From assembly GCA_964016885.1 (NCBI GenBank), contig OZ024742.1, positions 279,992,001-280,056,000 of the forward strand: a stretch of 64,000 nucleotides of DNA, in the 5' to 3' direction. Origin of the DNA: Eledone cirrhosa. Taxonomy: Eukaryota. Positions within the stretch are counted from its first letter, which is position 1, and every line of letters begins with the position of its first letter. Positions 6,925-60,610 of the stretch are shown piece by piece. The position numbers were made by a program, and so were the translations under genes. The notes beneath the pieces are model-generated. The model searched no databases. It was not told the DNA's origin and was given only the letters and a program-made list of their open reading frames with translations.

Positions 6925-7317
6925 CAAAGGAAAAGTGGTAAGGAACCAGATGGACCATAACGCACCAAAGTACTCAATACTTAGGGTAGTAGAGTGGGTA
7001 ATAGGAACGAGTAGGGCCCCGTCGGCTGAGCTCAAGCCGTTTCGACGGCTAATTCTGGACTAAATGAAAATTGTTATCCTGTTAAATAAATACCCCAACT
7101 TCTCAGGCGGTAATTCCATATATGGTAAAAGTGCTTGTCACGAGGATTGGTCAAAACTTTGTTGTTGAGACACATGATTCTATCATACCATTTTGTGGAA
7201 GGTAGGGGTAGCTGAACTTGCCAGTAGAAGAAAGGGGGAGAGGGAGTGGGGAAAACCCAGTCGAGCGTTGAAAGTGACAGCTACAGCAGATTCAAAGGAT
7301 AGGAGGTTGAAAAAAGT

Positions 7318-8798
7318 ATACGTTAAGCAAAACGCCAGACTTAGCCTCTGGGTCAACTCCCAGGAAGTAATCTCATGGTTCAGCAATATGGAGGACAAAC
7401 GAGACACACAATTCATCCAGTTTGATATAGAGAGTTACTATGCTTCAATTATCTTACCGCTCTTTACGGCCGCCTTGGACTTTGCCCAGACACTTGCGCC
7501 CATCACCGACCAGGAAAGAAATATCATCCTCCACACCAGGAAGACAGTCCTACTTTTCGACAACTCCAAATGGATAAAGAGTGCTCCCGACTCCCCCTTC
7601 GACGACAGTATGGGCGCGACGGATTCGGCTGAGGTCACAGATCTTTTAGGATTATTCCTACTAGTTAAACTCACCGATATGTTTCCTGCTTTCGGCGGTG
7701 GATTGTACCGTGATGATGGGCTCCTTACCCTTAAAGGGTACAACCCCAGTAGTACAGACCGGGTCCGTAAACAATTAATCAGCTTCTTCCGCGACTGGAG
7801 ATTTAAAATAACCCTACAAACGTCCCTAACCCGAGTAAACTTCCTGGACGTTACCCTTGTCCTCGATAATGATCTGTACTACCCATACTGGAAACCAAAC
7901 GACAACTTGCACTACATCCACCGCCGGTCAAACCATCCTAGAAACATCACCAATAATCTGGTTAAAAACACCTCCCTCCGTATATCTCGTTTGTCCGCTA
8001 ATGAGCAGATATTCGAGGAACATGCGCCTTATTACAACCAGGCCCTCAAGCGGAGTGGCTTCCTGGTGGAAATATCTTACTGTCCAGCTTCCATTAGCGG
8101 AACCAGCAAGCGACACCGCCGCTCACGCAACGTAACATGGTTCAATCCTCCCCACAACGCCGAAGTGACAACACCTATCGGAAAAAATCTTCTTTAGGCT
8201 CATCGAAAAACACTTCCCACTACAACACCGCTACCACAACATAATTAACAAACATACCATCAAACTCTCCTACAGCACCACACCTAACTTTGCACAAAAC
8301 ATCGTCTCCTCTATCAACAAAAAACTCAACCCCTATGGAAGAAATAACCTAGATAGCAGTGGAGAGCCCACCAGGAGGTGTAAATGTCCTGATGGATCCA
8401 TTTGCCCCCTCGACAACAGATGGAGAGATCGTAATGTGATCTACCTGTGCAACGTGAGGACGGACACCTCCAACAAAGCTTATATAGGATTAACCGCTTG
8501 TGACTTCAAGACCCGGCTATACCAACACAGACACAAGACCCGGCTATACCAACACAGACATACTTTCCGAAACCCGGCCCGGCGTCACGCCACTACACCT
8601 TCGGGCCACAGCTGGGACCTCAAAGATAACAATATAACCTATAATCTCACTTGGAGCTTACTGTCCAGAGCCAACTCTTACACGGGAGGACGCCCTCCGT
8701 GTAACTTATGCTCGGAGGAAACATTACAAATGCTGTTTTCGACAGACCAACTCCCAAACAAGAAAGACGAACTGGTAACTGCATGCAAACACATGTAG
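7318..8798 (+). pseudogene. PLE-1 reverse transcriptase + GIY-YIG endonuclease (frameshifted)
   Basis: RT motifs QFDIESYY, MGATDSAE, LYRDDGL, NFLDVTL, SNHP, WFNPP. Frameshift near 8190, linker CKCPDGSICPL, then VIYLC..AYIGLT..FKTRLYQH..CNLCSEE. Confidence 0.93.
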
Positions 8799-16433: not shown

Positions 16434-16656
16434 ATTGGAATAAATGCTCTGAAATAGCGATATATATGTGAATATAGACATAGAATATTCGAAAATATTC
16501 TGTATGTTTATAATAAACGTTTTGAAGACCTAATCGCTATAGAATAGAATACGTCACGTATTACAATTAGATTCTCGATAAAAGCAAGGGAAGTAAGTCT
16601 ACGCGTTTCATTCTTGTTAGAATTCATCAGGACTACATATCCAGTGCTTTCATCGA
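16434..16656 (-). repeat. Inverted partial copy of the 311-bp unit, including a hammerhead on the minus strand (16571-16656)
   Basis: Reverse complement of the unit segment tcgatgaaagc...atttattccaa, with one visible mismatch. Confidence 0.93.
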
Positions 16657-19600
16657 CAACCGCTCTTTCAAACCAGTTCCTGTACACAGCTAAGTATTCT
16701 ATAAGTCTCTAGCTGTGTCATTCTCGATGAAAGCACTGGATATGTAGTCCTGATGAATTCTAACAAGAATGAAACGCGTAGACTTACTTCCCTTGCTTTT
16801 ATCGAGAATCTAATTGTAATACGTGACGTATTCTATTCTATAGCGATTAGGTCTTCAAAATGTTTATTATAAACATACAGAATATTTTCGAATATTCTAT
16901 GTCTATATTCACATATATATCGCTATTTCAGAGCATTTATTCCAATTTCTAATTTCTGCCGGACCGGCAACCGCTCTTTCAAACCAGTTCCTGTACACAG
17001 CTAAGTATTCTATAAGTCTCTAGCTGTGTCATTCTCGATGAAAGCACTGGATATGTAGTCCTGATGAATTCTAACAAGAATGAAACGCGTAGACTTACTT
17101 CCCTTGCTTTTATCGAGAATCTAATTGTAATACGTGACGTATTCTATTCTATAGCGATTAGGTCTTCAAAATGTTTATTATAAACATACAGAATATTTTC
17201 GAATATTCTATGTCTATATTCACATATATATCGCTATTTCAGATCATTTATTCCAATTTCTAATTTCTGCCGGACCGGCAACCGCTCTTTCAAACCAGTT
17301 CCTGTACACAGCTAAGTATTCTATAAGTCTCTAGCTGTGTCATTCTCGATGAAAGCACTGGATATGTAGTCCTGATGAATTCTAACAAGAATGAAACGCG
17401 TAGACTTACTTCCCTTGCTTTTATCGAGAATCTAATTGTAATACGTGACGTATTCTATTCTATAGCGATTAGGTCTTCAAAATGTTTATTATAAACATAC
17501 AGAATATTTTCGAATATTCTATGTCTATATTCACATATATATCGCTATTTCAGAGCATTTATTCCAATTTCTAATTTCTGCCGGACCGGCAACCGCTCTT
17601 TCAAACCAGTTCCTGTACACAGCTAAGTATTCTATAAGTCTCTAGCTGTGTCATTCTCGATGAAAGCACTGGATATGTAGTCCTGATGAATTCTAACAAG
17701 AATGAAACGCGTAGACTTACTTCCCTTGCTTTTATCGAGAATCTAATTGTAATACGTGACGTATTCTATTCTATAGCGATTAGGTCTTCAAAATGTTTAT
17801 TATAAACATACAGAATATTTTCGAATATTCTATGTCTATATTCACATATATATCGCTATTTCAGAGCATTTATTCCAATTTCTAATTTCTGCCGGACCGG
17901 CAACCGCTCTTTCAAACCAGTTCCTGTACACAGCTAAGTATTCTATAAGTCTCTAGCTGTGTCATTCTCGATGAAAGCACTGGATATGTAGTCCTGATGA
18001 ATTCTAACAAGAATGAAACGCGTAGACTTACTTCCCTTGCTTTTATCGAGAATCTAATTGTAATACGTGACGTATTCTATTCTATAGCGATTAGGTCTTC
18101 AAAATGTTTATTATAAACATACAGAATATTTTCGAATATTCTATGTCTATATTCACATATATATCGCTATTTCAGAGCATTTATTCCAATTTCTAATTTC
18201 TGCCGGACCGGCAACCGCTCTTTCAAACCAGTTCCTGTACACAGCTAAGTATTCTATAAGTCTCTAGCTGTGTCATTCTCGATGAAAGCACTGGATATGT
18301 AGTCCTGATGAATTCTAACAAGAATGAAACGCGTAGACTTACTTCCCTTGCTTTTATCGAGAATCTAATTGTAATACGTGACGTATTCTATTCTATAGCG
18401 ATTAGGTCTTCAAAATGTTTATTATAAACATACAGAATATTTTCGAATATTCTATGTCTATATTCACATATATATCGCTATTTCAGAGCATTTATTCCAA
18501 TTTCTAATTTCTGCCGGACCGGCAACCGCTCTTTCAAACCAGTTCCTGTACACAGCTAAGTATTCTATAAGTCTCTAGCTGTGTCATTCTCGATGAAAGC
18601 ACTGGATATGTAGTCCTGATGAATTCTAACAAGAATGAAACGCGTAGACTTACTTCCCTTGCTTTTATCGAGAATCTAATTGTAATACGTGACGTATTCT
18701 ATTCTATAGCGATTAGGTCTTCAAAATGTTTATTATAAACATACAGAATATTTTCGAATATTCTATGTCTATATTCACATATATATCGCTATTTCAGAGC
18801 ATTTATTCCAATTTCTAATTTCTGCCGGACCGGCAACCGCTCTTTCAAACCAGTTCCTGTACACAGCTAAGTATTCTATAAGTCTCTAGCTGTGTCATTC
18901 TCGATGAAAGCACTGGATATGTAGTCCTGATGAATTCTAACAAGAATGAAACGCGTAGACTTACTTCCCTTGCTTTTATCGAGAATCTAATTGTAATACG
19001 TGACGTATTCTATTCTATAGCGATTAGGTCTTCAAAATGTTTATTATAAACATACAGAATATTTTCGAATATTCTATGTCTATATTCACATATATATCGC
19101 TATTTCAGAGCATTTATTCCAATTTCTAATTTCTGCCGGACCGGCAACCGCTCTTTCAAACCAGTTCCTGTACACAGCTAAGTATTCTATAAGTCTCTAG
19201 CTGTGTCATTCTCGATGAAAGCACTGGATATGTAGTCCTGATGAATTCTAACAAGAATGAAACGCGTAGACTTACTTCCCTTGCTTTTATCGAGAATCTA
19301 ATTGTAATACGTGACGTATTCTATTCTATAGCGATTAGGTCTTCAAAATGTTTATTATAAACATACAGAATATTTTCGAATATTCTATGTCTATATTCAC
19401 ATATATATCGCTATTTCAGAGCATTTATTCCAATTTCTAATTTCTGCCGGACCGGCAACCGCTCTTTCAAACCAGTTCCTGTACACAGCTAAGTATTCTA
19501 TAAGTCTCTAGCTGTGTCATTCTCGATGAAAGCACTGGATATGTAGTCCTGATGAATTCTAACAAGAATGAAACGCGTAGACTTACTTCCCTTGCTTTTA

Positions 19601-20643
19601 TCGAGAATCTAATTGTAATACGTGACGTATTCTATTCTATAGCGATTAGGTCTTCAAAATGTTTATTATAAACATACAGAATATTTTCGAATATTCTATG
19701 TCTATATTCACATATATATCGCTATTTCAGAGCATTTATTCCAATTTCTAATTTCTGCCGGACCGGCAACCGCTCTTTCAAACCAGTTCCTGTACACAGC
19801 TAAGTATTCTATAAGTCTCTAGCTGTGTCATTCTCGATGAAAGCACTGGATATGTAGTCCTGATGAATTCTAACAAGAATGAAACGCGTAGACTTACTTC
19901 CCTTGCTTTTATCGAGAATCTAATTGTAATACGTGACGTATTCTATTCTATAGCGATTAGGTCTTCAAAATGTTTATTATAAACATACAGAATATTTTCG
20001 AATATTCTATGTCTATATTCACATATATATCGCTATTTCAGAGCATTTATTCCAATTTCTAATTTCTGCCGGACCGGCAACCGCTCTTTCAAACCAGTTC
20101 CTGTACACAGCTAAGTATTCTATAAGTCTCTAGCTGTGTCATTCTCGATGAAAGCACTGGATATGTAGTCCTGATGAATTCTAACAAGAATGAAACGCGT
20201 AGACTTACTTCCCTTGCTTTTATCGAGAATCTAATTGTAATACGTGACGTATTCTATTCTATAGCGATTAGGTCTTCAAAATGTTTATTATAAACATACA
20301 GAATATTTTCGAATATTCTATGTCTATATTCACATATATATCGCTATTTCAGAGCATTTATTCCAATTTCTAATTTCTGCCGGACCGGCAACCGCTCTTT
20401 CAAACCAGTTCCTGTACACAGCTAAGTATTCTATAAGTCTCTAGCTGTGTCATTCTCGATGAAAGCACTGGATATGTAGTCCTGATGAATTCTAACAAGA
20501 ATGAAACGCGTAGACTTACTTCCCTTGCTTTTATCGAGAATCTAATTGTAATACGTGACGTATTCTATTCTATAGCGATTAGGTCTTCAAAATGTTTATT
20601 ATAAACATACAGAATATTTTCGAATATTCTATGTCTATATTCA
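16657..20643 (+). repeat. Tandem array of 311-bp units (~12.8 copies), retrozyme-like
   Basis: caaccgctctttc recurs at 16657, 16968, 17279 ... 20389 (period 311). Copies are essentially identical (one visible G>T at 17244). No ORF. Confidence 0.96.
16720..16809 (+). ncRNA. Type I hammerhead ribozyme (first of 13 tandem copies, +311 each)
   Basis: agtc-CTGATGA-attct(aaca)agaat-GAAA-cgcg-TA-gact: canonical core, stem II attct/agaat, palindromic stem III ACGCGT, GUA cleavage after 16780. Stem I is extended by attctcgatgaaagca/tgcttttatcgagaat. Confidence 0.92.
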
Positions 20644-20874: not shown

Positions 20875-20991
20875 AAGTTGAAAAAAAAAATGAAAACGAA
20901 ATTTCATTTCTCACTCTTAGTATGGCACTTACTTAAATGTAAGTATGTATGTATACGTACATACACATATGTATACAGACGTACAGTAACA

Positions 20992-21052
<61 letters not shown>

Positions 21053-21493
21053 GCATACAGATACACATACATATATGCACGCATCAGTTTAGCCGACGTT
21101 TATTATAACGCAGCTTTGTTCGCTTGTTTGTCAACAAATCGACAGCCTGAATTTATGCCATACGGTGTTAAGGCAACCACGTCACCTTTTTATTCAACAC
21201 TGACACAGGAACGATGTACTAGTTTCAAGCTTGTTAGCTATCATCAGCACCGTTTACCCATCTGCCAGATAGTTGAACGTTCGAAAGTATATACTTTCCT
21301 TATGAAAATTAACGGCTGAGCAGCCTAATTTGCATATTGAGTGAGTTAAATCGGTCAGGCATAACGAAAACGACAAGTTGAAAAAAAAGAACTGAAAACG
21401 AAATTTCATTTCTCACTCTTAGTATGGCACTTACTTAAATGTAAGTATGTATGTATACGTACATACATATATGTATACAGACGTACAGTAGCA

Positions 21494-21538
<45 letters not shown>

Positions 21539-21978
21539 GCATACAGGTACACATACATATATGCACGCGTCAGTTTAGCCGACGTTTATTATAACGCAGC
21601 TTTGTTCGCTTGTTTGTCAACAAATCGAACAACCTGAATTTATGCCATACGGTGTTAAGGCAACCACGTCACCTTTTTGTTCAACACTGACACAGGAACG
21701 ATGTACTAGTTTCAAGCTTGTTAGCTATCATCAGCACCGTTTACCCATCTGCCAGATAGTTGAACGTTCGAAAGTATATACTTTCCTTATGAAAATTAAC
21801 GGCTGAGCAGCCTAATTTGCATATTGAGTGAGTTAAATCGGTCAGGCATACCGAAAACGACAAGTTGAAAAAAAAAATGAAAACGAAATTTCATTTCTCA
21901 CTCTTAGTATGGCACTTACTTAAATGTAAGTATGTATGTATACGTACATACATATATGTATACAGACGTACAGTAGCA

Positions 21979-22029
<51 letters not shown>

Positions 22030-22184
22030 GCATACAGGTACACATACATATATGCACGCATCAGTTTAGCCGACGTTTATTATAACGCAGCTTTGTTCGC
22101 TTGTTTGTCAACAAATCGAACAGCCTGAATTCATGCCATACGGTGTTAAGGCAACCACGTCACCTTTTTCTTCAACACTGACAC
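20875..22184 (-). repeat. Tandem array of ~487-500-bp units (~2.7 copies) carrying minus-strand hammerheads
   Basis: Units start at 20875, 21375 and 21862; length differences come from an internal (TA)n. Confidence 0.92.
21210..21254 (-). ncRNA. Type I hammerhead ribozyme (second copy at 21697-21741)
   Basis: Reverse complement reads aacggtg-CTGATGA-tagct(aaca)agctt-GAAA-ctag-TA-catcgtt. Confidence 0.85.
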
Positions 22185-22680
22185 ATGTATGTACGTATAC
22201 ATACATACTTACATTTAAGTAAGTGCCATACTAAGAGTGAGAAATGAAATTTCGTTTTCATTTTTTTTTTTCAACTTGTCGTTTTCGGTATGCCTGACCG
22301 ATTTAACTCACTCAATATGCAAATTAGGCTGCTCAGCCGTTAATTTTCATAAGGAAAGTATATACTTTCGAACGTTCAACTATCTGGCAGATGGGTAAAC
22401 GGTGCTGATGATAGCTAACAAGCTTGAAACTAGTACATCGTTCCTGTGTCAGTGTTGAACAAAAAGTTGACTTGGTTGCCTTAACACCGTATGGCATAAA
22501 TTCAGGCTGTTCAGTTTGTTGACAAACAAGCGAACATAAGCTGCGTTATAATAAACGTCGGCTAAACTGATGCGTGCATATATGTATGTGTACCTGTATG
22601 CATATGTGTATATATATATATGCATGCTACTGTACGTCTGTATACATATATGTATGTACGTATCCATACATACTTACATT
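22185..22680 (+). repeat. Inverted, circularly permuted copy of the ~487-bp unit
   Basis: Reverse complement of the preceding array, spanning a unit junction. Confidence 0.9.
22398..22442 (+). ncRNA. Type I hammerhead ribozyme in the inverted copy
   Basis: aacggtg-CTGATGA-tagct(aaca)agctt-GAAA-ctag-TA-catcgtt; 7-bp stem I with one G-U, palindromic stem III ACTAGT. Confidence 0.85.
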
Positions 22681-24713: not shown

Positions 24714-25930
<1,217 letters not shown>

Positions 25931-29054: not shown

Positions 29055-29614
29055 AGTTCTCTTTCGGCCTCCACCCGCTTTCATGTCGCCACAGTGTCGG
29101 CCGCATTCCACGCCATGCTGCCCTCAACGAGGTCATTAAGCATTGGTTGGACGCTGCAGGCTTCCCTTCCCAGCTCGAGCCGATGGGGCTGAATCGAAGG
29201 GACGGAAAAAGGCCAGATGGCATGACCATCTTCCCGTTCCGCGGTGGCAAACGCCTCGTCTTGGATGCCACTTGCACCGACATTCTCTGCAGTTGCAACC
29301 TGGTGCAGTCTGCGACTGACCCATGTTCTGCTGCACGTCGGGCTGAGAGGGCCAAACTCCTCAAATACCGGTCGCTCTCCGACAGGTTTGCGGTTGTACC
29401 CCTGGCAGTGAAGACTTCTGGTGTCCTCGGCCCAAGGTCTACCTCCTTACTCACCACCATAGGCACTGAGCTGGCCAGCCGCAGGTGTGAGCCCCGCGAG
29501 TTGGAGTGGCTTTTCCAGCGTGTCTCCCTTGCCGTCCCCCGGGGAAACGCCTTCTCCATGCTGTCTGCCGGGGCTGTGGGTGGGCCCCATCGTGTACCGT
29601 TGTGGTTGTTGTAG
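29055..29614 (+). mobile_element. CRE-like non-LTR retrotransposon 3' fragment (zinc knuckle remnant + restriction-like endonuclease)
   Basis: GC-rich island in AT-rich DNA. Open frame reads HPLSCRHSVGRIPRHAALNEVIKHWLDAAGFPSQLEPMGLNRRDGKRPDGMTIFPFRGGKRLVLDATCTD...RVSLAVPRGNA, with an RH..N and RPD..D signature. Confidence 0.8.
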
Positions 29615-41383: not shown

Positions 41384-43490
41384 CTACCCACCCGGGTCGT
41401 TATAGGGTTTGAGGGCGATGAATGTCGTACGCAATCTGTGTTTGCATGTGGTTACCAGTTCGTCTTTTTTGTTTAGGAGTTGGTCTTTCGAAAACAGCAT
41501 TTGTAATGTTTCCACCGAGTTACACTGACAGCGTCCTCCAGTGTAAGAGTTAGCTCTGGACAGTAAGCTCCAAGTGAGATTGTAGGTTATATTATTATCT
41601 TGGAGGTCCCAGATGTGGCCCGAAAGTGTAGTGGCATGTCGCCGGACCGGCTTTCGGAAAGTATGTCGGTGTTGGTAGAGCCAGGTCTTGAAGTCACACG
41701 CGGTTAATCCTATATAAGCTTTGTTGGAGGTGTCTGTCATCACGTTGCATTGGTAGGGCATGTTACGTTCTCGGCATTTGTTGTTGAGGGGGCACAGAGA
41801 TCTATCAGGGCAGTTACACCTTCTGGTCGGCTCTCAACTGATGTCTAGGTTGATTTTTTTTTGTTTGAGGAGACGATGTTTTGTGCGAAGTTGGTTGTAG
41901 TGCTGTAGTTTGATGGTGTTTTTGTTGATTATGTTGTGGTAGCGGTGTTGTAGTGGGAAGTGTTTTTCCAGGAGTCTAAAGAAGATTTATCGATAGGTGT
42001 TGCCACCTCGGCATTGTGGGGAGGATTGAACCACGTCACGTTGCGTGAGCGGCGGTGTCGCCTGCTGGTTCCGCTAAGGGAAGCTGGATAAAAGGATATT
42101 TCCTCCCGGAAGCCACTCCGCTTGAGGGCCTGGTTGTAATGTGGCGCGTGTTCGTCGAATATCTGTTCATTAGCGGACAAACGAGATATGCGGAGGTAGA
42201 TATTTTTAACCAGGTTATTGTTGATGCTTCTAGGATGGTTAGAGCGGCGTTGGATGTAGTGCAGGTTATCGTTTGGTTTCCTGTATGGGTGGTACAGATC
42301 ATTTTCGAGGTTACGGGTAACTTACAGGAAATTGACTCGGGTTAGGGACGTTTGTATGGTGATTTTAAATCCCCAGTCCCGGAAGAAGTTGATTAGTTGT
42401 TTACGGACCAAGTCTGTACTACTGGGGTTGTACCCTTTGATGGTGAGGGGCCCATCATCCCTGTACAATCCACCGCGGAATGCAGGAAACATTTCGCTGA
42501 GTTTAAATAGTAGGAATAATCCTATAAGATCTGTGACCTCGGCCGAATCCGTCGCGCCTATACTGACGTCGAAGGGAGAGTCGGGAGCTTTCTTTATCCA
42601 CTTGGAGTTGTCGAAAAGTAGGACTGTCTTCGTGGCGTGGAGAATGATATTTCTTTCCTGGGTGTGAGTGTTTCAGCAAAGTCCAAGGCAGCCGTAAGGA
42701 GCGGTAAGGTAATATATGCATAGTAACTCTATCTCAAACTGGATGAATTTTGTGTCTCGTTCGTCCTCCATATTCCTGAACCATGAGATTACTTCCTGGG
42801 TGCTGACTCATAGGCTAAGTCTCACGTTTTGCTTAACTTTTGGTATAACTCGGTCTAGGATCTTTTTACTGATTCTCCCTATGTCCGACTTCGTTGGGTT
42901 TATAAGCCTAATGGATGGTCTGCGGTCGAAGTCGGATTTGTGGTCCTTCAGTGTGAAGTAGGGAGTCCATGGGTCAAGGTGTCCAGTGCGGTCGGCGCTC
43001 CCGCTGCTGGAGTTAATTTGTTGTTCATCTCGATTTATGTCCTCGATAATTGAATGGTTAGCCTTTTTATAGGTGGAGTTTAGGCTCCTTCTGATCAGTG
43101 TGTGGTATCTGTCAGGGTTGACGAAATAGAGGTTTCCAGCTTTGCCGAGTGCACCATGATGTCGTTGTTGTTTTCATACTCTGTTATTTTGCTACGGAGT
43201 TGTTGTAGGAATCTGTTGTGTCTGGGTTTGAATTTAATGATCCTGACCAGGTGGAAAAGGTCGTTCTCGAAGGGTGAGAGCATATGGTTCGGAGGGGGAG
43301 ATATGTAGGTATTGAATCTCTCCTTGGTGTCGAAGTCCTGATTGTCGCGGTATCTATCGTAGAAAGAAGTTCTCCATCTTAGTCTTTTCGCAAAAAGGTT
43401 GATTGTTTTGCGTGAGCAGCCGAAGGTAAAGTTTTCTCGGTGGAACTGGGATATCCATGGTGGAGAAATAGATGTTTTTTTTTCGCATCG
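41384..43490 (-). pseudogene. PLE-2 RT + GIY-YIG ORF (multiple frameshifts)
   Basis: N-terminal STMDIPVPP..KRLRWR and LSPFENDLFHLVRIIKF; RT QFEIESYY, GATDSAE, LYRDDG, WFNPP; linker CNCPDRSLCPLNNKC; AYIGLTACDFKT. Confidence 0.93.
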
Positions 43491-43676
43491 TGCGGGTGAA
43501 GAAACTTGAGCTGGGTGGAAAAGATGGGATATGGCGTGGTAGAGTCGGAAAGTGCTCTACTAGAGAGATAGGAGATAAATAACAAAGGAATTGTGGTAAG
43601 GAACCAGATGGACCGTAATGGACGCACTAGAGTACTCAATACGTAGGGTAGTAGAGTGGGAAATAGTAAAAAATAT

Positions 43677-43775
43677 GACCCCGACGGCAGAGCTCAAGCC
43701 GTTTCGACGGCTATTTCTGGACTAAATTAGAATTTTTAGCCTGGTGAATAAATAGCCGAACTCTTCAAGGGGGTA
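43677..43775 (-). ncRNA. Hammerhead-like motif in PLE-2 pLTR (other copies 40606-40705 minus, 45219-45315 plus)
   Basis: cccc-TTGAAGA-gttcggctattt...aaatagccgtc-GAAA-cggcttgagctctgccg-TC-gggg; U3-G8 wobble core. The other copies read TTAACAA and TTGACAT. Confidence 0.65.
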
Positions 43776-51934: not shown

Positions 51935-52216
51935 TATCATAAATCATGTCCTTAGAATTATTAGATAAAATATATACCATTTCCTCTCCCAATTAGCATA
52001 ATTAACCATATAAAAAATCAATTAGACCAAGCTATAAGAATAAAGGCTCCTATGAAGAAACCTCATAGGAGCCTTTATTCATAGGAGAAAGCGGCCTCTA
52101 GCGGTGGCCCCAATAGAGTATTTATCCAACTTTCCAACACCATGTAGAAACTGACTAAATATACGATCAGCATTTATGTATATGTAAACCTTTATATATA
52201 TATATATATATATATA

Positions 52217-53896
52217 TTGGGTGCGGATGCATTCATGTATATATGTGTGTGTCCGCATGTATCTGTGTGTTTCTAAATATATTGTTAATAACTCCCTCTG
52301 GTCGAGCAATCTTTGAAGTGTGGGGACAGCTGGAAAGCTTCCATTACTCATACTTCTCGCCTTCTTCACCACCTCTTCTGCGGCCTCGATATAAATACCC
52401 CCTCCGCCTCCGTGGTATTTTCTTCAAGGTTATAGGAGGCTTAGCTCTGTTTCTCGACCGTTATATCGCGTGACTATCTCCCCCTCCGCCTTTTGGGATT
52501 CTTTCTCACGTCGTGTAGACGCGTTCTTGAGACTAGTAAAATGAGGTATCCTCTTGATAAGTCGGCAGACCTCGCAAGGACTCTATGTCTTTATGATATA
52601 TTGTTTTTGTTTATGCCACGAAACTACGTAGTCGAGGAATTTAGGAGCAGTTTAGGTATGATACATTTTATTACTAATTATATCTAAATGTTTCTTCTCT
52701 CTTCATAATGTATTTTTAACTCTGATACTGGTTCAGTCTAGTTCAACTGAATTGGTCTGTCCCAGTCATTCATTGAGCAACATCGGTGAAGTTGGCACCC
52801 TTAACTCACAGTTGGGTGCGGATGCATTCATGTATATATGTGTGTGTCCGCATGTATCTGTGTGTTTCTAAATATATTGTTAATAACTCCCTCTGGTCGA
52901 GCAATCTTTGAAGTGCGGGGACAGCTGGAAAGCTTCCATTACTCATACTTCTCGCCTTCTTCACCACCTCTTCTGCGGCCTCGATATAAATACCCCCTCC
53001 GCCTCCGTGGTATTTTCTTCGAGGTTATAGGAGGCTTAGCTCTGTTTCTCGACCGTTATATCGCGTGACTATCTCCTCCTCCGCCTTTTGGGATTCTTTC
53101 TAACGTCGTGTAGACGCGTTCTTGAGACTAGTAAAATGAGGTATCCTCTTGATAAGTCGGCAGACCTCGCAAGGACTCTATGTCTTTATGATATATTGTT
53201 TTTGTTTATGCCACGAAACTACGTAGTCGAGGAATTTAGGAGCAGTTTAGGTATGATACATTTTATTACTAATTATATCTAAATATTTCTTCTCTCTTCA
53301 TAATGTATTTTTAACTCTGATACTGGTTCTGTCTAGTTCAACTGAATTGGTCTGTCCCAGTCATTCATTGAGCAACATCGGTGAAGTTGGCACCCTTAAC
53401 TCACAGTTGGGTGCGGATGCATTCATGTATATATGTGTGTGTCCGCATGTATTTGTGTGTTTCTAAATATATTGTTAATAACTCCCTCTGGTCGAGCAAT
53501 CTTTGAAGTGTGGGGACAGCTGGAAAGCTTCCATTACTCATACTTCTCGCCTTCTTCACCACCTCTTCTGCGGCCTCGATATAAATACCCCCTCCGCCTC
53601 CGTGGTATTTTCTTCGAGGTTATAGGAGGCTTAGCTCTGTTTCTCGACCGTTATATCGCGTGACTATCTCCCCCTCCGCCTTTTGGGATTTTTCTCACGT
53701 CGTGTAGACGCGTTCTTGGGACTAGTAAAATGAGGTATCCTCTTGATAAGTCGGCAGACCTCGCAAGGACGCTATGTCTTTATGATATATTGTTTTTGTT
53801 TATGCCACGAAACTACGTAGTCGAGGAATTTAGGAGCAGTTTAGGTATGATACATTTTATTACTAATTATATCTAAATGTTTCTTCTCTCTTCATA

Positions 53897-53902
<6 letters not shown>
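52217..53902 (+). repeat. Tandem array of 595-bp units (~2.8 copies), retrozyme/pLTR-like
   Basis: ttgggtgcggatgc at 52217, 52812 and 53407; near-identical copies, bounded by (TA)n on both sides. Confidence 0.95.
52549..52638 (+). ncRNA. Variant type I hammerhead with U3-A8 core (copies 53144-53233, 53738-53827)
   Basis: tcctc-TTGATAA-gtcggca...tgccac-GAAA-ctacgtag-TC-gagga; palindromic stem III ACTACGTAGT, GUC triplet. Confidence 0.8.
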
Positions 53903-53970
<68 letters not shown>

Positions 53971-54487
53971 TGATGTATATATATATACATATATATATAT
54001 ATATGTATATAAATATATATATGTGTATATATATACAAATGGAAGTCCAGTAAAATCGAAGCGCTCTGGCTGTGGCCAAGCTAAAGATATGCAATCCGGA
54101 ATATCCAGCAAAGCACTCGTTAATGTAGTGTCACATTAGAGTAATAACATACGTTAGAAATCTTGACAAATCGAAAACTGCGACCGGTGAGCCAGCCACA
54201 TGGATCAAAGCAACGTGAAAACCAACTCAGGATATTTTGAGAAACCTAATAAATATTCTTAAAAAGAATCCAGTTGCATTTTCGATGTCTTTTCTTTATA
54301 TATATATATATATATATAATAGTAATAATAATAAATTTGAAGACTACAATCAAAAGAGGGCTCGATAAGGATAAATATATAAGAACAACAGAGCAAATAT
54401 TTATTAAAATAAGAGATTAAAGTTTAAGCAAAGAATCGCTGCTTTCAACCTTAACGGGATCTTCTGTTATTTTAATAAATATTTAAA

Positions 54488-54601: not shown

Positions 54602-54649
<48 letters not shown>

Positions 54650-54767
54650 AAATCAATTAAGGGAGTCATGTCCGAGACATGCACCATATACTCAAAGATT
54701 CCAATGAATAGATCCTACCATTTTATATCAACTAGAAATTTACATATATATATTTAAAATAAACACA

Positions 54768-55108
54768 TGATTATTTCTCTTTTCCTATTATTATGTTTAA
54801 AGGAGTTAGTATTGTTGGATATGTACTTAATCGGTTCGCTAAATCCGCTAGTGTGAAGGGCTTTATTATAGTAGTGGGGTGTCTTATTGAAAATAGCTTC
54901 TGAGGAAGAGAGGGTGAAGATGCTACGGCTAATATTAGGGATAAGGTTTTTAAATACTATAGGAGGATGGCAAGAGCCTTTATTTATGTATTTTAAATTC
55001 TCATTAGGTTTATGGTACGGTTTATAAGAAGCAGTAGGCAGATCTAGGTTTATATCTAGAAAATTGTCATTGGAAAGGTTAGTGTCAATAGTAATTTTAA
55101 GATTAAAA
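54768..55108 (-). mobile_element. Inverted duplicate of the PLE-3 RT thumb region
   Basis: Reverse complement of ~56562-56903 with a few substitutions. Confidence 0.85.
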
Positions 55109-55489
55109 TGTTCGTGTAGGAAGTGTTAGAAGGTGTTGGGATATTCTTATTAGAGTAATCCAAAGGATATTTATCCATGTTCAGTATTGGTTTAAAATCC
55201 TATTGACCGAAGAGTGCTCGACTTTAAAAGGGCTGGAAGGTGCCAATCTCATAAAAATGTAGAATATGCTACGATCATTCCCTTGGGAGCTGTATAAGTA
55301 TTGAAGTTTCCGTTGAAAATTAAAAAAGTCATAGGAGTGAAGAGTGCTCTATGTAAGTACCAGAGCTAAATTTAATGTATAATAAACAATACAATATAAT
55401 TACCTCATTACCAGAGGTTTCCCGAATAAGACGAATACGAAAAACGTCCTCATTCGTTCTTCGGACAAGGCAATTTAAAACATAGTGAA

Positions 55490-57550
55490 ATATTTGAAAA
55501 ATCTCCTCACGAAAATGCTGATAGACAAAGTAGAGAAAGTTGTTAAAAGAATGATATGGAAACCTTAGATTCTCGACGGACACTTTTATACGGCCTCTAC
55601 GGAACATTTTGATATCAAAACTCATAAATACCCGCAACGAGTAAAAGATATGACCACTTTTGAACTAGACTTAGTTAATTTAATCAACAATATCAAATTT
55701 CGTAAGTACTCTAACCCTTTTCAATCTAAACTATCTAATGATATTTCAATATTCAAATCCTCTAAAAATAAGTCCGTTTTCTACGACAAAACTAAAAACT
55801 TATACGAAGTTATTACTACTTTACATGACCAACACTTACTAGATAACATCACCTCTAAATACCAAATAGCTGATATAAACACGTATAATAATATAAATAA
55901 GGAATCTAAAGAATTAGCTAGTGTTTTAAAAATAGATAATAGAACTGAAACACTTGCTAAATTGCTAAACGTAATGCCTATATCAAAGATCACAAACGTG
56001 ATTTTATTAATCGTCCTAGTTGGAGATTAATCAACTCTGCTACGACTGATATGGGTCTTGCAAGCAAGAAAATTTTAAATAATATAAACACACAGATTAG
56101 AAGTAAGCCTGAATTACTCAAATGGATAAATAGCTCTTCGGTAGTACATTGGTTTAACAATATTAAAGATACAAATAGTTCTAGACTCACCCAATTTGAC
56201 ATTTTAGACTTTTACCCGTCTATTACTCACCCTCTTTTAGCGAAAGCCTTAAATTTCGCTAGAAAGTTTATCAATATTTCTGATATTGAAGAGAATGTCA
56301 TCTTCCATGTTAGAAACACTCTACTTTTTACTAATAATGACACTTGGGTAAAAATATATAACCCAGAGAGCCCATTCGATGTGTCAATGGGTTCTTTTGA
56401 CAGTGCTGATGTTTGTGATTTAGTGCGCATACACACACTTAAAGAGAAATTACCTAACCATATTTTTGGGCTTTACCACGACAATGGTCTAATACTTTCC
56501 CATACCACCATAGGCCATGACTTAGATAGATTAAGGAAAGTCTTAATACAAAACTTGGCTAGTTTTAATCTTAAAATTACTATTGACACTAATCTTTCCA
56601 ATGTTAATTTTCTAGATATAAACCTAGATCTGCCTACTGCTTCTTATAAACCGTACCATAAACCTAATGAAAATTTAAAATACATAAATAAAGGCTCTTG
56701 CCATCCTCCTATAGTTTTAAAAACCTTATCCCTAATATTAGCCGTAGGATCTCTACCCTCTCTTCCTCAGAAGCTATTTTCAATAAGGCATCCCTCTACT
56801 ATAATAAAGCCCTTCAAACTAGCGGATTTAGCGAACCGATTAAGTACATACCCAACAATAGTAACTCCTTTAAACATAATAATAGGAAAAGAAAAATAAT
56901 CTGGTTCACAACCTCCTACTCTTTAGCAGTTAAAACTAATGTAGGCAAAACATTCCTAGAGCTCTTAGATAAATATTTCCCTAGAACACATAGATACTAT
57001 AAGATCTTCAATAGAAACTGTGTCAAAATTAGCTGCTCCTGCGGTCCCCCTATTAAATCTTATATCCTCAATAAAAAAACACCCAGAGAACATCAAAATT
57101 GCTCATGTAGAGTCAAAAGTGAATGCCCATTACAAGGTAAATGCAACACCAAAGCCATTGTATATGCGGCTAAAGTGACAACCATCAGCAACAACCTACC
57201 AGCCACCAGCGAACGATATATGGGTATGACACAAGACAAATTCAAAACACATAATTACTCACATGTCGCATCTTTCCGACATCCAGAAAAAAGATTTACA
57301 ACAGCTCTGGCTAGCAGAATATGGGATTTGAAAGACTAAGGTATCCAATATAAATTGGATTGGTCAATTTTGAACCAATCTAAAGAATATGCAAGAGGAA
57401 CAAGAAGAGATGCCCACTCTGCATAAGTGAAAAATATTGGATTTTACAGAGCCTTAAATCACCAAAAACATGCCTAAACGCAAAAACAGAAATTTTCATC
57501 AGTTGCCCACACACGAAATCACACTTGCTTTCCAGCTCATATAAACTTAA
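55490..57550 (+). pseudogene. PLE-3 RT + GIY-YIG ORF (frameshifted)
   Basis: MLIDKVEKVVKRMIWK, FELDLVNLINNIKF, QFDILDFYPSI, MGSFDSAD, LYHDNGL (decayed YRDDG), NFLDINL, IIWF, CSCRVKSECPLQGKC, IVYAAKV..RYMGMT..FKTH..H. Confidence 0.93.
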
Positions 57551-58019
57551 CTCACTTTCAGATACTTATCCTCCATAGACTCTTGTTCTTCACTTTCCTT
57601 AAATTATCCTATTTACAGACTTCTCTTTCTGATTTACTTTCATTTTTAACTTTATTTTTAATTTTATTTTTATTTTTACTTCACATCCACCCCTACATTT
57701 TGATTCACTTACCTAATATCTTCACATTCCACATTTTACTTCCCCATTTTCTTTCACCACCTGATATTCTGTCACTTGCGTTTTCCACTCCAGATATATT
57801 CTGTTGTTTCCCAACCGATTTCATATTTGTACTAATTTATTAATACGGTTGGTTTCTAATTTGTGTCTATGCGTGTGAGTGTGCATATGTGTGCGTGCGT
57901 ATGTATATATATGTGTGTTTTTATATCTATGTTTTTACATACTTGTTTATACGTGTGTGTGTGTGTGGGTGAATGTATGTGTATATGTATATGTATATGT
58001 ATATGTATGTATGGGTGTG

Positions 58020-60564: not shown

Positions 60565-60610
60565 AAGCTCTGACGAATACCTACAGTATGAAACAGAGAT
60601 ATGTCAGCTT
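60565..60610 (+). ncRNA. Canonical type I hammerhead in a diverged relative of the 311-bp unit (60222-60730)
   Basis: aagct-CTGACGA-atac(ctaca)gtat-GAAA-cagagatatg-TC-agctt; stem I extended by ttttcaacaaacaa/ttgtttgttgaaaa (60541-60631). Confidence 0.88.

Follow-up and report, generated by a model that had tools for sequence, protein, structure and literature searches.

In the 64,000-nucleotide window of Eledone cirrhosa contig OZ024742.1 analysed here (positions 279,992,001 to 280,056,000; coordinates below count from its first letter), the stretch 52217..53902 of the + strand is a tandem array of 2.83 units of 595 bp, and represents one insertion of a young, non-autonomous family of retrozymes. 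The units are ~99% alike and start at 52217, 52812 and 53407; units 1 and 2 mismatch at 6 of 595 positions, while unit 3 carries a 1-bp deletion and terminates at 53902. The insertion is single-armed and 5'-truncated, its 3' end lies at the second of two fixed sites described below (site B), and it is flanked by (TA)n runs (52193..52217 on the left; a (TA)n-rich run, 53900..54035, on the right); the insertion junctions of the family lie inside such runs. The sole + strand frame of at least 100 amino acids (aa) begins inside the TA run and has no Pfam match. The TATA-like octamer TATAAATA (52390..52397, +), pointed out in an earlier note on this DNA and a possible internal promoter, is present but poorly conserved, reading TATAAATA in 31 and TATGAATA in 21 of 55 young-family locus variants. 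Four contig data sets of unrecorded kind all cover the unit, with no difference of at least 5% within the hammerhead core. A candidate intron seen by eye (~52654-52735) was dropped, as the contig data hold no such joint and one flanking AG is lost in unit 2.

The tandem array had been described in the earlier note, together with a U3-A8 hammerhead ribozyme in every unit, and both are real: the segments UUGAUAA, GAAA and GUC occur in 3/3 units. Copy 1 (52549..52638, +) is a type I hammerhead with stem I at 52549-53 (5' strand) and 52634-38 (3' strand), the core segments UUGAUAA (52554-60, with U3 and A8) and GAAA (52620-23), a stem II region of 59 nt (52561-619), and stem III formed by a 10-nt palindrome (52623-32), with UC at 52632-33. 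Cleavage is predicted after 52633, where the GUC named in the earlier note is found, and, for copies 2 (53144..53233, +) and 3 (53738..53827, +), after 53228 and 53822. The Watson-Crick 3-8 pair, NUH triplet, three helices, G10.1-C11.1 pair and open stem I of the type I hammerhead are all present. Of 2000 dinucleotide-shuffled versions of the unit, the hammerhead descriptor matched 2, with both strands searched. The Rfam scan of the window gave nothing at gathering score and, over 52100-53500, no hammerhead match even at E<=10.

The core is intact in 152 of 160 distinct genome contexts located by fuzzy anchors, C3 occurs in none of the 160, and the C3-G8 version of the 595-bp family has 0 matches in the genome. 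Compared with the window copy, 24 older copies show identities of 0.97-0.98 in the core, stem I and stem III, and of 0.59-0.69 in the flanks and distal stem II. Over 28 copies, 93.9% of cells in the named hammerhead structure are paired and 3 pairs are altered on both sides, although kinship of the copies may inflate the pairing score over shuffles. Stem I follows a compensatory path from U-A through U-G to C-G: 122 copies carry G at position 1.2, and by hand count 37 of the first 100 of these have C at 2.2, the others forming U-G. The conservation of core and stems against the flanks, the double-sided pair changes and the stem I path argue, at the level of sequence, for maintenance of the hammerhead fold by selection. 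The extension of stem I proposed in the earlier note fares less well: in an alignment of 28 copies no more than 241 of 346 cells are paired, and the fit is mainly to the youngest subfamily. A candidate 6-bp pseudoknot may join 52542-47, 5' of stem I, to 52569-74 in the stem II internal loop (52542..52574, +); it is paired in 97% of cells in the 28 copies, and genome-wide the C variant is matched by G in 97 of the first 100 of 175 cases, with only 393 A-type copies against several thousand. The stem III palindrome forms no hairpin alone and a duplex of -12.9 kcal/mol with a second copy, and palindrome-to-palindrome pairing is what is expected of dimer-type animal hammerheads (PMC4209133). We consider it likely that the ribozyme is active.

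Three further observations concern the ribozyme region. The RNA 3' of the cleavage site (52634-52704) can form a long hairpin at the expense of stem I, whose 3' strand it takes up, and near the core GAGG/CCUC pairing has three competing registers; such competing folds near stem I are a possible on-off switch in the modelled structures. A second family with long stem II and a different stem III was rejected (5 matches, fewer than the 32 in the control, and 3 of the 5 being decayed family copies). Keeping stem III and varying stem II gave 28 matches, each of which proved to be a family copy or a junction, and this candidate was rejected too.

The family is abundant in this 3.0-Gb, microsatellite-rich genome, where a 23-mer from the ribozyme 3' half has 7,488 exact matches. 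The best blast matches of the unit are 98-100% identical and spread over many contigs. Periods of 595 and 591 bp prevail among young copies; identity falls to 75-90% in the older subfamilies, of which one has a period of ~580 bp. The elements are thus retrozymes by their dispersed, high-copy, non-coding tandem units, each with a type I hammerhead. In one contig data set the 591-type unit appears as a single closed, variant-free contig, as expected from tandem DNA and from a circle alike. The unit had been called long for a retrozyme, and it does exceed the 170-400 nt reported in PMC7229834, but it lies within the 51-972 bp range of a 2026 preprint (bioRxiv 10.64898/2026.07.22.740005). Amplification as a minisatellite by unequal crossover at the DNA level, with a fossil ribozyme, would account for the tandem units, and this route is discussed for retrozyme arrays in the same preprint. 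It is made highly improbable by the dispersal over many contigs, the inverted arms, the (TA)n targets and the combination of fixed 3' with variable 5' ends, as well as by the selectively conserved ribozyme. In L120 and in L073/L076 entire insertions are tandem-duplicated with their flanks (periods ~2.9 and 2.55 kb), and duplication at the DNA level adds copies too.

A total of 72 loci were mapped, 51 in genome order from the 23-mer matches and 21 from the best blast matches. The copies mostly abut (TA)n, their 5' ends are variable, and their 3' ends lie at two fixed points. End B, at unit position 497, is 80 nt beyond the cleavage site (52700..52713, +; also 53308; used at 53902 by the window insertion) and would be the first start of reverse transcription. 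End A, at unit positions 64-72, is ~245 nt beyond the cleavage site (52875..52883, +; also 52280-88 and 53470-78); it would be the second start, and is left unused by the window insertion. The 165 nt between them (52714..52878, +) form a 'tail' present on one arm only of two-armed insertions. Adjacent inverted copies, 5' truncation and the one-sided tail make up anatomy of the pseudo-long-terminal-repeat (pLTR) type, and arms read through the cleavage site.

Head-to-head arms are found in 42 of the 72 loci. Their ends pair as A+B in 36, as B+B in 1 (with an atypical flank) and as A+A in 0, and 5 have an off-site end, one of these being clipped by the locus edge and B-ended on second look. The A+B combination in 36 of 37 scorable loci has p ~3e-10 against 50:50; two of the 36 are a local duplicate, and p is still near 5e-10 on allowing for this. 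The single-armed loci among the 51 genome-order loci end at A in 12 cases, at B in 12 and elsewhere in 1. Better (TA) matches, judged by eye, exist elsewhere in the unit and are unused as ends, so a match to the target alone does not set the end sites. Ends A and B may also pair with each other in an 11-bp helix, a weak candidate with z -5.3, in which 86% of cells are paired and one double change is seen; neither the older subfamily nor the partner element Hydra-784 described below shows it when folded, and TA-like strands pair anyway.

These counts bear on the origin of the second arm. Were only one end RNA-primed, the second arm could come from fold-back of the complementary DNA (cDNA) or from a template switch, the product being cut off by the endonuclease, with the hairpins described below as cut signals at the DNA level. 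The tail has been attributed to endonuclease resolution (PMC8557442), the D. virilis endonuclease requires tail sequence (cited in PMC11167929), and the lengths permit fold-back in 19 of the 34 simple two-armed loci. In the remaining 15, fold-back of one cDNA is excluded, the second arm being too long; single-armed copies end at A or B equally, hairpin A lies 3' of end A and so outside the terminal cDNA, and two RNA start sites have been demonstrated directly for a Poseidon element (PMC11167929). We regard the fold-back route as unlikely.

The 5' ends of the arms show some clustering. Twelve lie at unit positions 1-6, at the 5' strand of a long hairpin and as in the window copy (L036, L037, L040, L046, L047, L049, L050, L058, L095, L115 and L117), and several others lie at 402-404, the 3' foot of stem II. 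The enzyme may stop at these points, or a donor RNA may have its 5' end there.

Behind each 3' end, beginning 5-7 nt past it, stands a bulged hairpin RCUC...UH-GAGY, in which RCUC leads into a short inner helix and a loop, and a 2-nt bulge precedes GAGY. Hairpin B (52719..52780, +; copy at 53314-53375) starts 5 nt after end B and has a 3-bp inner helix, a 44-nt loop, the 2-nt bulge and GAGC. Hairpin A (52886..52904, +; copies at 52291-52309 and 53481-53499) starts ~7 nt after end A, with a 2-bp inner helix, a 3-nt loop, the same bulge and GAGC. The unit contains the motif exactly 2 times, against 0.13 in shuffles, the pattern having been derived from the same sequences before being tested on them. 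The hairpins are retained in older subfamilies, and 94% of cells are paired in 12 copies. The two other hammerhead arrays of the window (311 and 487 bp) do not contain the motif, which is therefore not generic. That the hairpins determine the two start sites is probable. The two fixed ends and the hairpins do not appear in the earlier note.

The same arrangement is found in autonomous Penelope-like elements that belong to the Hydra clade. Six such families were examined in this genome, named by the length of their open reading frame (ORF) in aa: 784, 714, 719, X (863 aa), 844 and 850. All six have a hammerhead, two fixed ends in (TA)n and the hairpin pair between the hammerhead and the ORF; by the descriptor, the inner helix of the second hairpin is reduced to a single pair in 714 and 719. 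Opposite arms are A+B in 7/8 cases for 784, 4/4 for X and 3/3 for 844/850, and the tail measures ~70-105 nt. The translations show the Hydra features, namely a C-terminal GIY-YIG domain, the CxCX5C linker and RWK-like and DKT-like motifs (RWR and DKA variants in some families), and the target is (TA)n; the clade was assigned by the motifs defined in PMC8557442 (section 11), with a tree built without a reference Hydra sequence. In that quick tree 784 and X stand with P0001 on one side of a branch (SH-aLRT 100; P0003 left out and the careful search unfinished).

Two of these families come closest to the retrozyme in different respects. The ribozyme of 784 is the most similar, with U3-A8 and a 54-nt stem II whose base consists of two pairs plus a bulge. 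In family X, also U3-A8, the neighbourhood of hairpin A is closest, ranking 1 among 57 targets for all three retrozyme subfamilies in a ranking that left out the 844/850 families. The latter, closer sisters of X, have the same hairpin forms but C3-G8, and U3-A8 was accordingly rejected as a marker of partner or clade. Family X (L378, 3583-5993) has 725 exact ribozyme matches and a long low-complexity insert in its ORF; together with its 844- and 850-aa sisters (L382) it shows that one genome holds several intact, apparently young Hydra families. The Hydra-type ORFs of the window itself are broken, the intact families having been located by the genome search. The earlier note had suggested looking for a unit that adjoins a Penelope-like ORF elsewhere; no joined ORF was met in the loci examined. 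No unit was found continuous with an ORF for reverse transcriptase (RT) plus GIY-YIG, the tblastn matches in L031-L208 adjoining units and not lying within them.

Outside this genome, 77 Hydra-type loci were collected from metagenomes, 47 of them with the ORF start and 35 with at least 170 nt upstream of it. Two or more motif sites are present in 25 of these 35 loci, some of which are near-duplicates, one site in 7 and none in 3; the controls gave 3/35 on the reverse strand and 2/35 inside the ORF. The spacing between sites is mostly 53-82 nt, and the first inner pair, not required by the search, is paired in 52/52 (C-G 39, U-A 12, U-G 1). One metagenome Hydra locus (L284) has, upstream of 477, a candidate G3-C8 core, a third possible 3-8 pair. 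In a published Hydra consensus the hairpin is visible by eye (PMC8557442 supplement), and the words 'hairpin' and 'stem-loop' are absent from the available text of that supplement.

With this, dependence of the retrozyme on a Hydra element is very probable. The suggestion of a retrozyme-like element in the earlier note, and dependence on Penelope-like elements, are supported by the insertion anatomy, the copy number and the Hydra-type hairpins; taken as a whole, its interpretation as a retrozyme-like or pLTR-multimer element is partly supported. The mobiliser could also belong to another (TA)n-targeting Penelope-like clade, such as Naiad or Neptune, the likeness of the hairpins to those of Hydra being due to ancestry or chance. 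Naiad elements target (TA)n in cephalopods too (PMC8557442 supplement), the exact parent family was not found in the sampled Hydra loci, and the hairpins of the youngest subfamily show a decayed outer pair. On the other hand, the distance from retrozyme end to hairpin matches that of Hydra in young and old subfamilies alike, the 311- and 487-bp arrays are devoid of the motif, and Naiads are described as lacking canonical hammerheads (PMC8557442); this makes another clade very unlikely.

Starting from what is directly observed, namely the anatomy of the insertions with their two ends, the A+B rule, the positions of the hairpins and their sharing with Hydra elements, we think there are good grounds for the following reading: a non-coding retrozyme with two hairpin-marked ends spreads in (TA)n by means of a Hydra-clade reverse transcriptase-endonuclease that primes both target strands on one RNA. 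A tandem copy would be transcribed, and its U3-A8 hammerhead would cut after GUC, probably best as a dimer held through the palindromic stem III, with the monomer then ligated into a circle by analogy with known retrozymes (PMC7229834). The Hydra protein, perhaps in two copies, would bind hairpins B and A, to judge from the ends. Both strands of the (TA)n run would be nicked, a few AT letters of the target would match at each start, and cDNA would begin 3-8 nt 5' of each hairpin. Each enzyme could circle the template for up to ~7 units, and the two cDNAs would be joined into the observed pair of head-to-head arms, one A-ended and one B-ended; the tail would correspond to the 165 nt between the sites, and single-armed copies would retain either end. 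If so, priming of both (TA)n strands at once on one RNA accounts for the tail and for the head-to-head inversions. By a slight balance of the evidence, Hydra elements carry a new RNA signal, GCUC...UH-GAGC, in two copies, each docking one RT and fixing one start.

The insertions also bear on the form of the template. Each insertion shows a single unit haplotype across both arms: among 240 locus-wide variants 29 are private, the private ones occur in 15 of 53 loci, and in L110 four private variants recur in all 6-7 pieces. The haplotype shared by both arms fits one monomer read repeatedly, or a homogeneous donor array. Twin priming by the Hydra protein at both hairpins could also proceed on an uncut, linear read-through RNA of a tandem array, the hammerhead being slow or otherwise used and no circle being formed. 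The 5' ends of arms do not pile up at the cleavage site (1/78 against 1.7 expected), the twelve 5' ends at unit positions 1-6 are possibly the 5' end of a linear donor RNA, and the hammerhead fold is not the lowest in energy (-29.5 kcal/mol constrained versus -34.3 free, over 157 nt). Likewise, in the Poseidon study cleavage was dispensable in vitro and uncut RNA was the main template (PMC11167929). Against a linear template, the core and stems are far better conserved than the flanks, with the compensatory path in stem I; variants private to an insertion and present on both arms are explained most simply by one repeatedly read monomer, and related animal retrozymes accumulate as circles (PMC7229834). 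The linear template is entertained as a tentative possibility, and a circular one is judged a little better than an even guess.

Other points weigh against the twin-primed, Hydra-mobilised retrozyme or parts of it, in addition to the energy of the fold, the lack of a 5'-end pile-up, the dispensable cleavage in Poseidon and the 19 loci in which fold-back fits by length. As to the ribozyme, its folding z is -1.2, the predicted fold of the circle forms neither the hammerhead nor hairpin A, and 8/9 Xenopus retrozyme dimers were uncleaved in vitro (bioRxiv 10.64898/2026.07.22.740005). As to the arms, their lengths are uncorrelated (Spearman 0.03), no matched 5' ends between arms were found in the 72-locus mapping, 'private' variants were judged on a sample of 53 loci out of thousands, and the single-haplotype pattern would also follow from a homogeneous donor array. 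In the consulted text on Poseidon the two strands show no difference in start site (PMC11167929). The hairpins show no double-sided change inside the retrozyme, and in the youngest subfamily both carry an A-C mismatch in place of their outer pair. At the level of blastn, no autonomous element homologous to the unit was found among the 30+20+30+20 Hydra loci sampled from the genome. Of 18 second copies in other organisms, only 3 clearly enter (TA)n 3-8 nt before a hairpin; of the other 15, 4 diverge 3-4 nt before it into other sequence, 2 stand at contig ends, 7 run through and 2 are ambiguous.

The remainder of the window contains related elements. The Hydra-784 lineage has left broken copies and short pieces of its ends at 7178-8798 (+), 41384-43700 (-), 7031 (-), 3771 (-) and 22816 (+), and the short pieces, which bear the first hairpin, recur often in the window. 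An old, frameshifted two-armed Hydra insertion of the 714/719 lineage occupies 54647-57560, with a hairpin at 55366 (-). At 16445-20642 a 311-bp array of 12.8 copies bears a minimal hammerhead of the C3-G8 type and, in (TA)n, a short inverted arm, with two ends ~36 nt apart by eye; it likely uses another partner because it has no Hydra hairpin. The 487-bp array (20875-22500), also without this hairpin, has an inverted arm and a minimal hammerhead on the minus strand. A single-copy hammerhead-like motif with C3-G8 is found at 60570 (+), and a GIY-YIG fragment with a different cysteine linker at 25336-25680 (-), the latter with a weak Pfam match below the cut-off. The 185-aa frame at 29057-29614 (+), which has no Pfam match, resembles a retroelement endonuclease.

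In comparison with the known metazoan non-LTR retrozymes (PMC7229834; bioRxiv 10.64898/2026.07.22.740005), the family shares the non-coding tandem units, one type I hammerhead in each, thousands of copies and the company of Penelope-like elements. It differs from them by a unit larger than the 170-400 nt circles, the U3-A8 core, the 59-nt stem II region, the strict (TA)n target, and two fixed ends with hairpins that indicate a named partner clade. Descent of animal retrozymes from Penelope-like elements has already been argued (bioRxiv 10.64898/2026.07.22.740005), and the two have been tied together by co-occurrence and pLTR homology, with no cis signal in the consulted parts of the sources (PMC7229834; the 2026 preprint); here the retrozyme is tied to a specific clade by a cis element. 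The U3-A8 hammerhead is not new, and the swap is by itself of modest interest: as the earlier note had said, it is a tolerated natural variant, already in print (PMC3088659 section 8; PMC4209133), with ~1,300 hits in S. mansoni Penelope-like elements. The known examples, S. mansoni Cercyon among them (PMC4209133), have the same 3-8 swap and a palindromic stem III suited to dimers, and differ from ours in that the latter has a bulge-interrupted stem II with a long hairpin extension and a candidate pseudoknot, pseudoknots being known in about 40% of hammerheads (PMC3088659). For squid hammerheads, PMC6962438 gives counts only in its available text.

Hydra elements target (TA)n and bear hammerheads (PMC8557442 section 11), and one octopus Hydra family is listed. 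The retrozyme resembles them in target, hammerhead, 5' truncation, inverted arm and one-end tail, and in the hairpin pair found here in six families; unlike them it has no ORF, and its tail of 165 nt compares with 30-40 bp, often at one end only, for Penelope-like elements (PMC8557442). The one-sided tail is thus already known in outline. Three features are apparently new, namely the presence of the hairpin in duplicate, the constant distance between it and the ends, and the strict pairing of A with B, as no description of the hairpin pair or of the A+B rule appeared in the literature or in Rfam, with Repbase, Dfam, subscription papers and some supplements outside the search. The closest parallel is Anolis Poseidon (PMC11167929), whose protein nicks both strands, extends each of them and requires RNA on the 3' side of its two start sites; there too, two internal starts downstream of the hammerhead bound the tail and the target is AT-rich. 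The two Poseidon sites are adjacent in one AC-rich stem-loop, whereas here each site has a separate conserved hairpin and the arms use different sites.

The origin of Penelope-like tails and inverted arms, and the enzyme that moves animal retrozymes, have been named as open questions (PMC8557442, PMC7229834). On these questions the present family offers a short, conserved RNA signal in two copies, ends that lie at a fixed distance from it, the strict rule of one A and one B end, and a genome that also holds partner ORFs in intact form. The signal could serve as a compact RNA tag for (TA)n insertion; if the proposed mechanism is true, any RNA with both hairpins would be a programmable passenger for a telomerase-related enzyme.

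More distant parallels are offered by other retroelements and by telomerase. The 3' stem-loops shared by short and long interspersed elements (SINEs and LINEs), L1 twin priming and the template-flanking elements of telomerase RNA provide related features: a short RNA hairpin, held in common with the autonomous partner, that recruits the enzyme, and two target strands primed on one RNA, giving an inversion. In the retrozyme both priming sites are internal and fixed, in place of a 3' end combined with a variable internal site.

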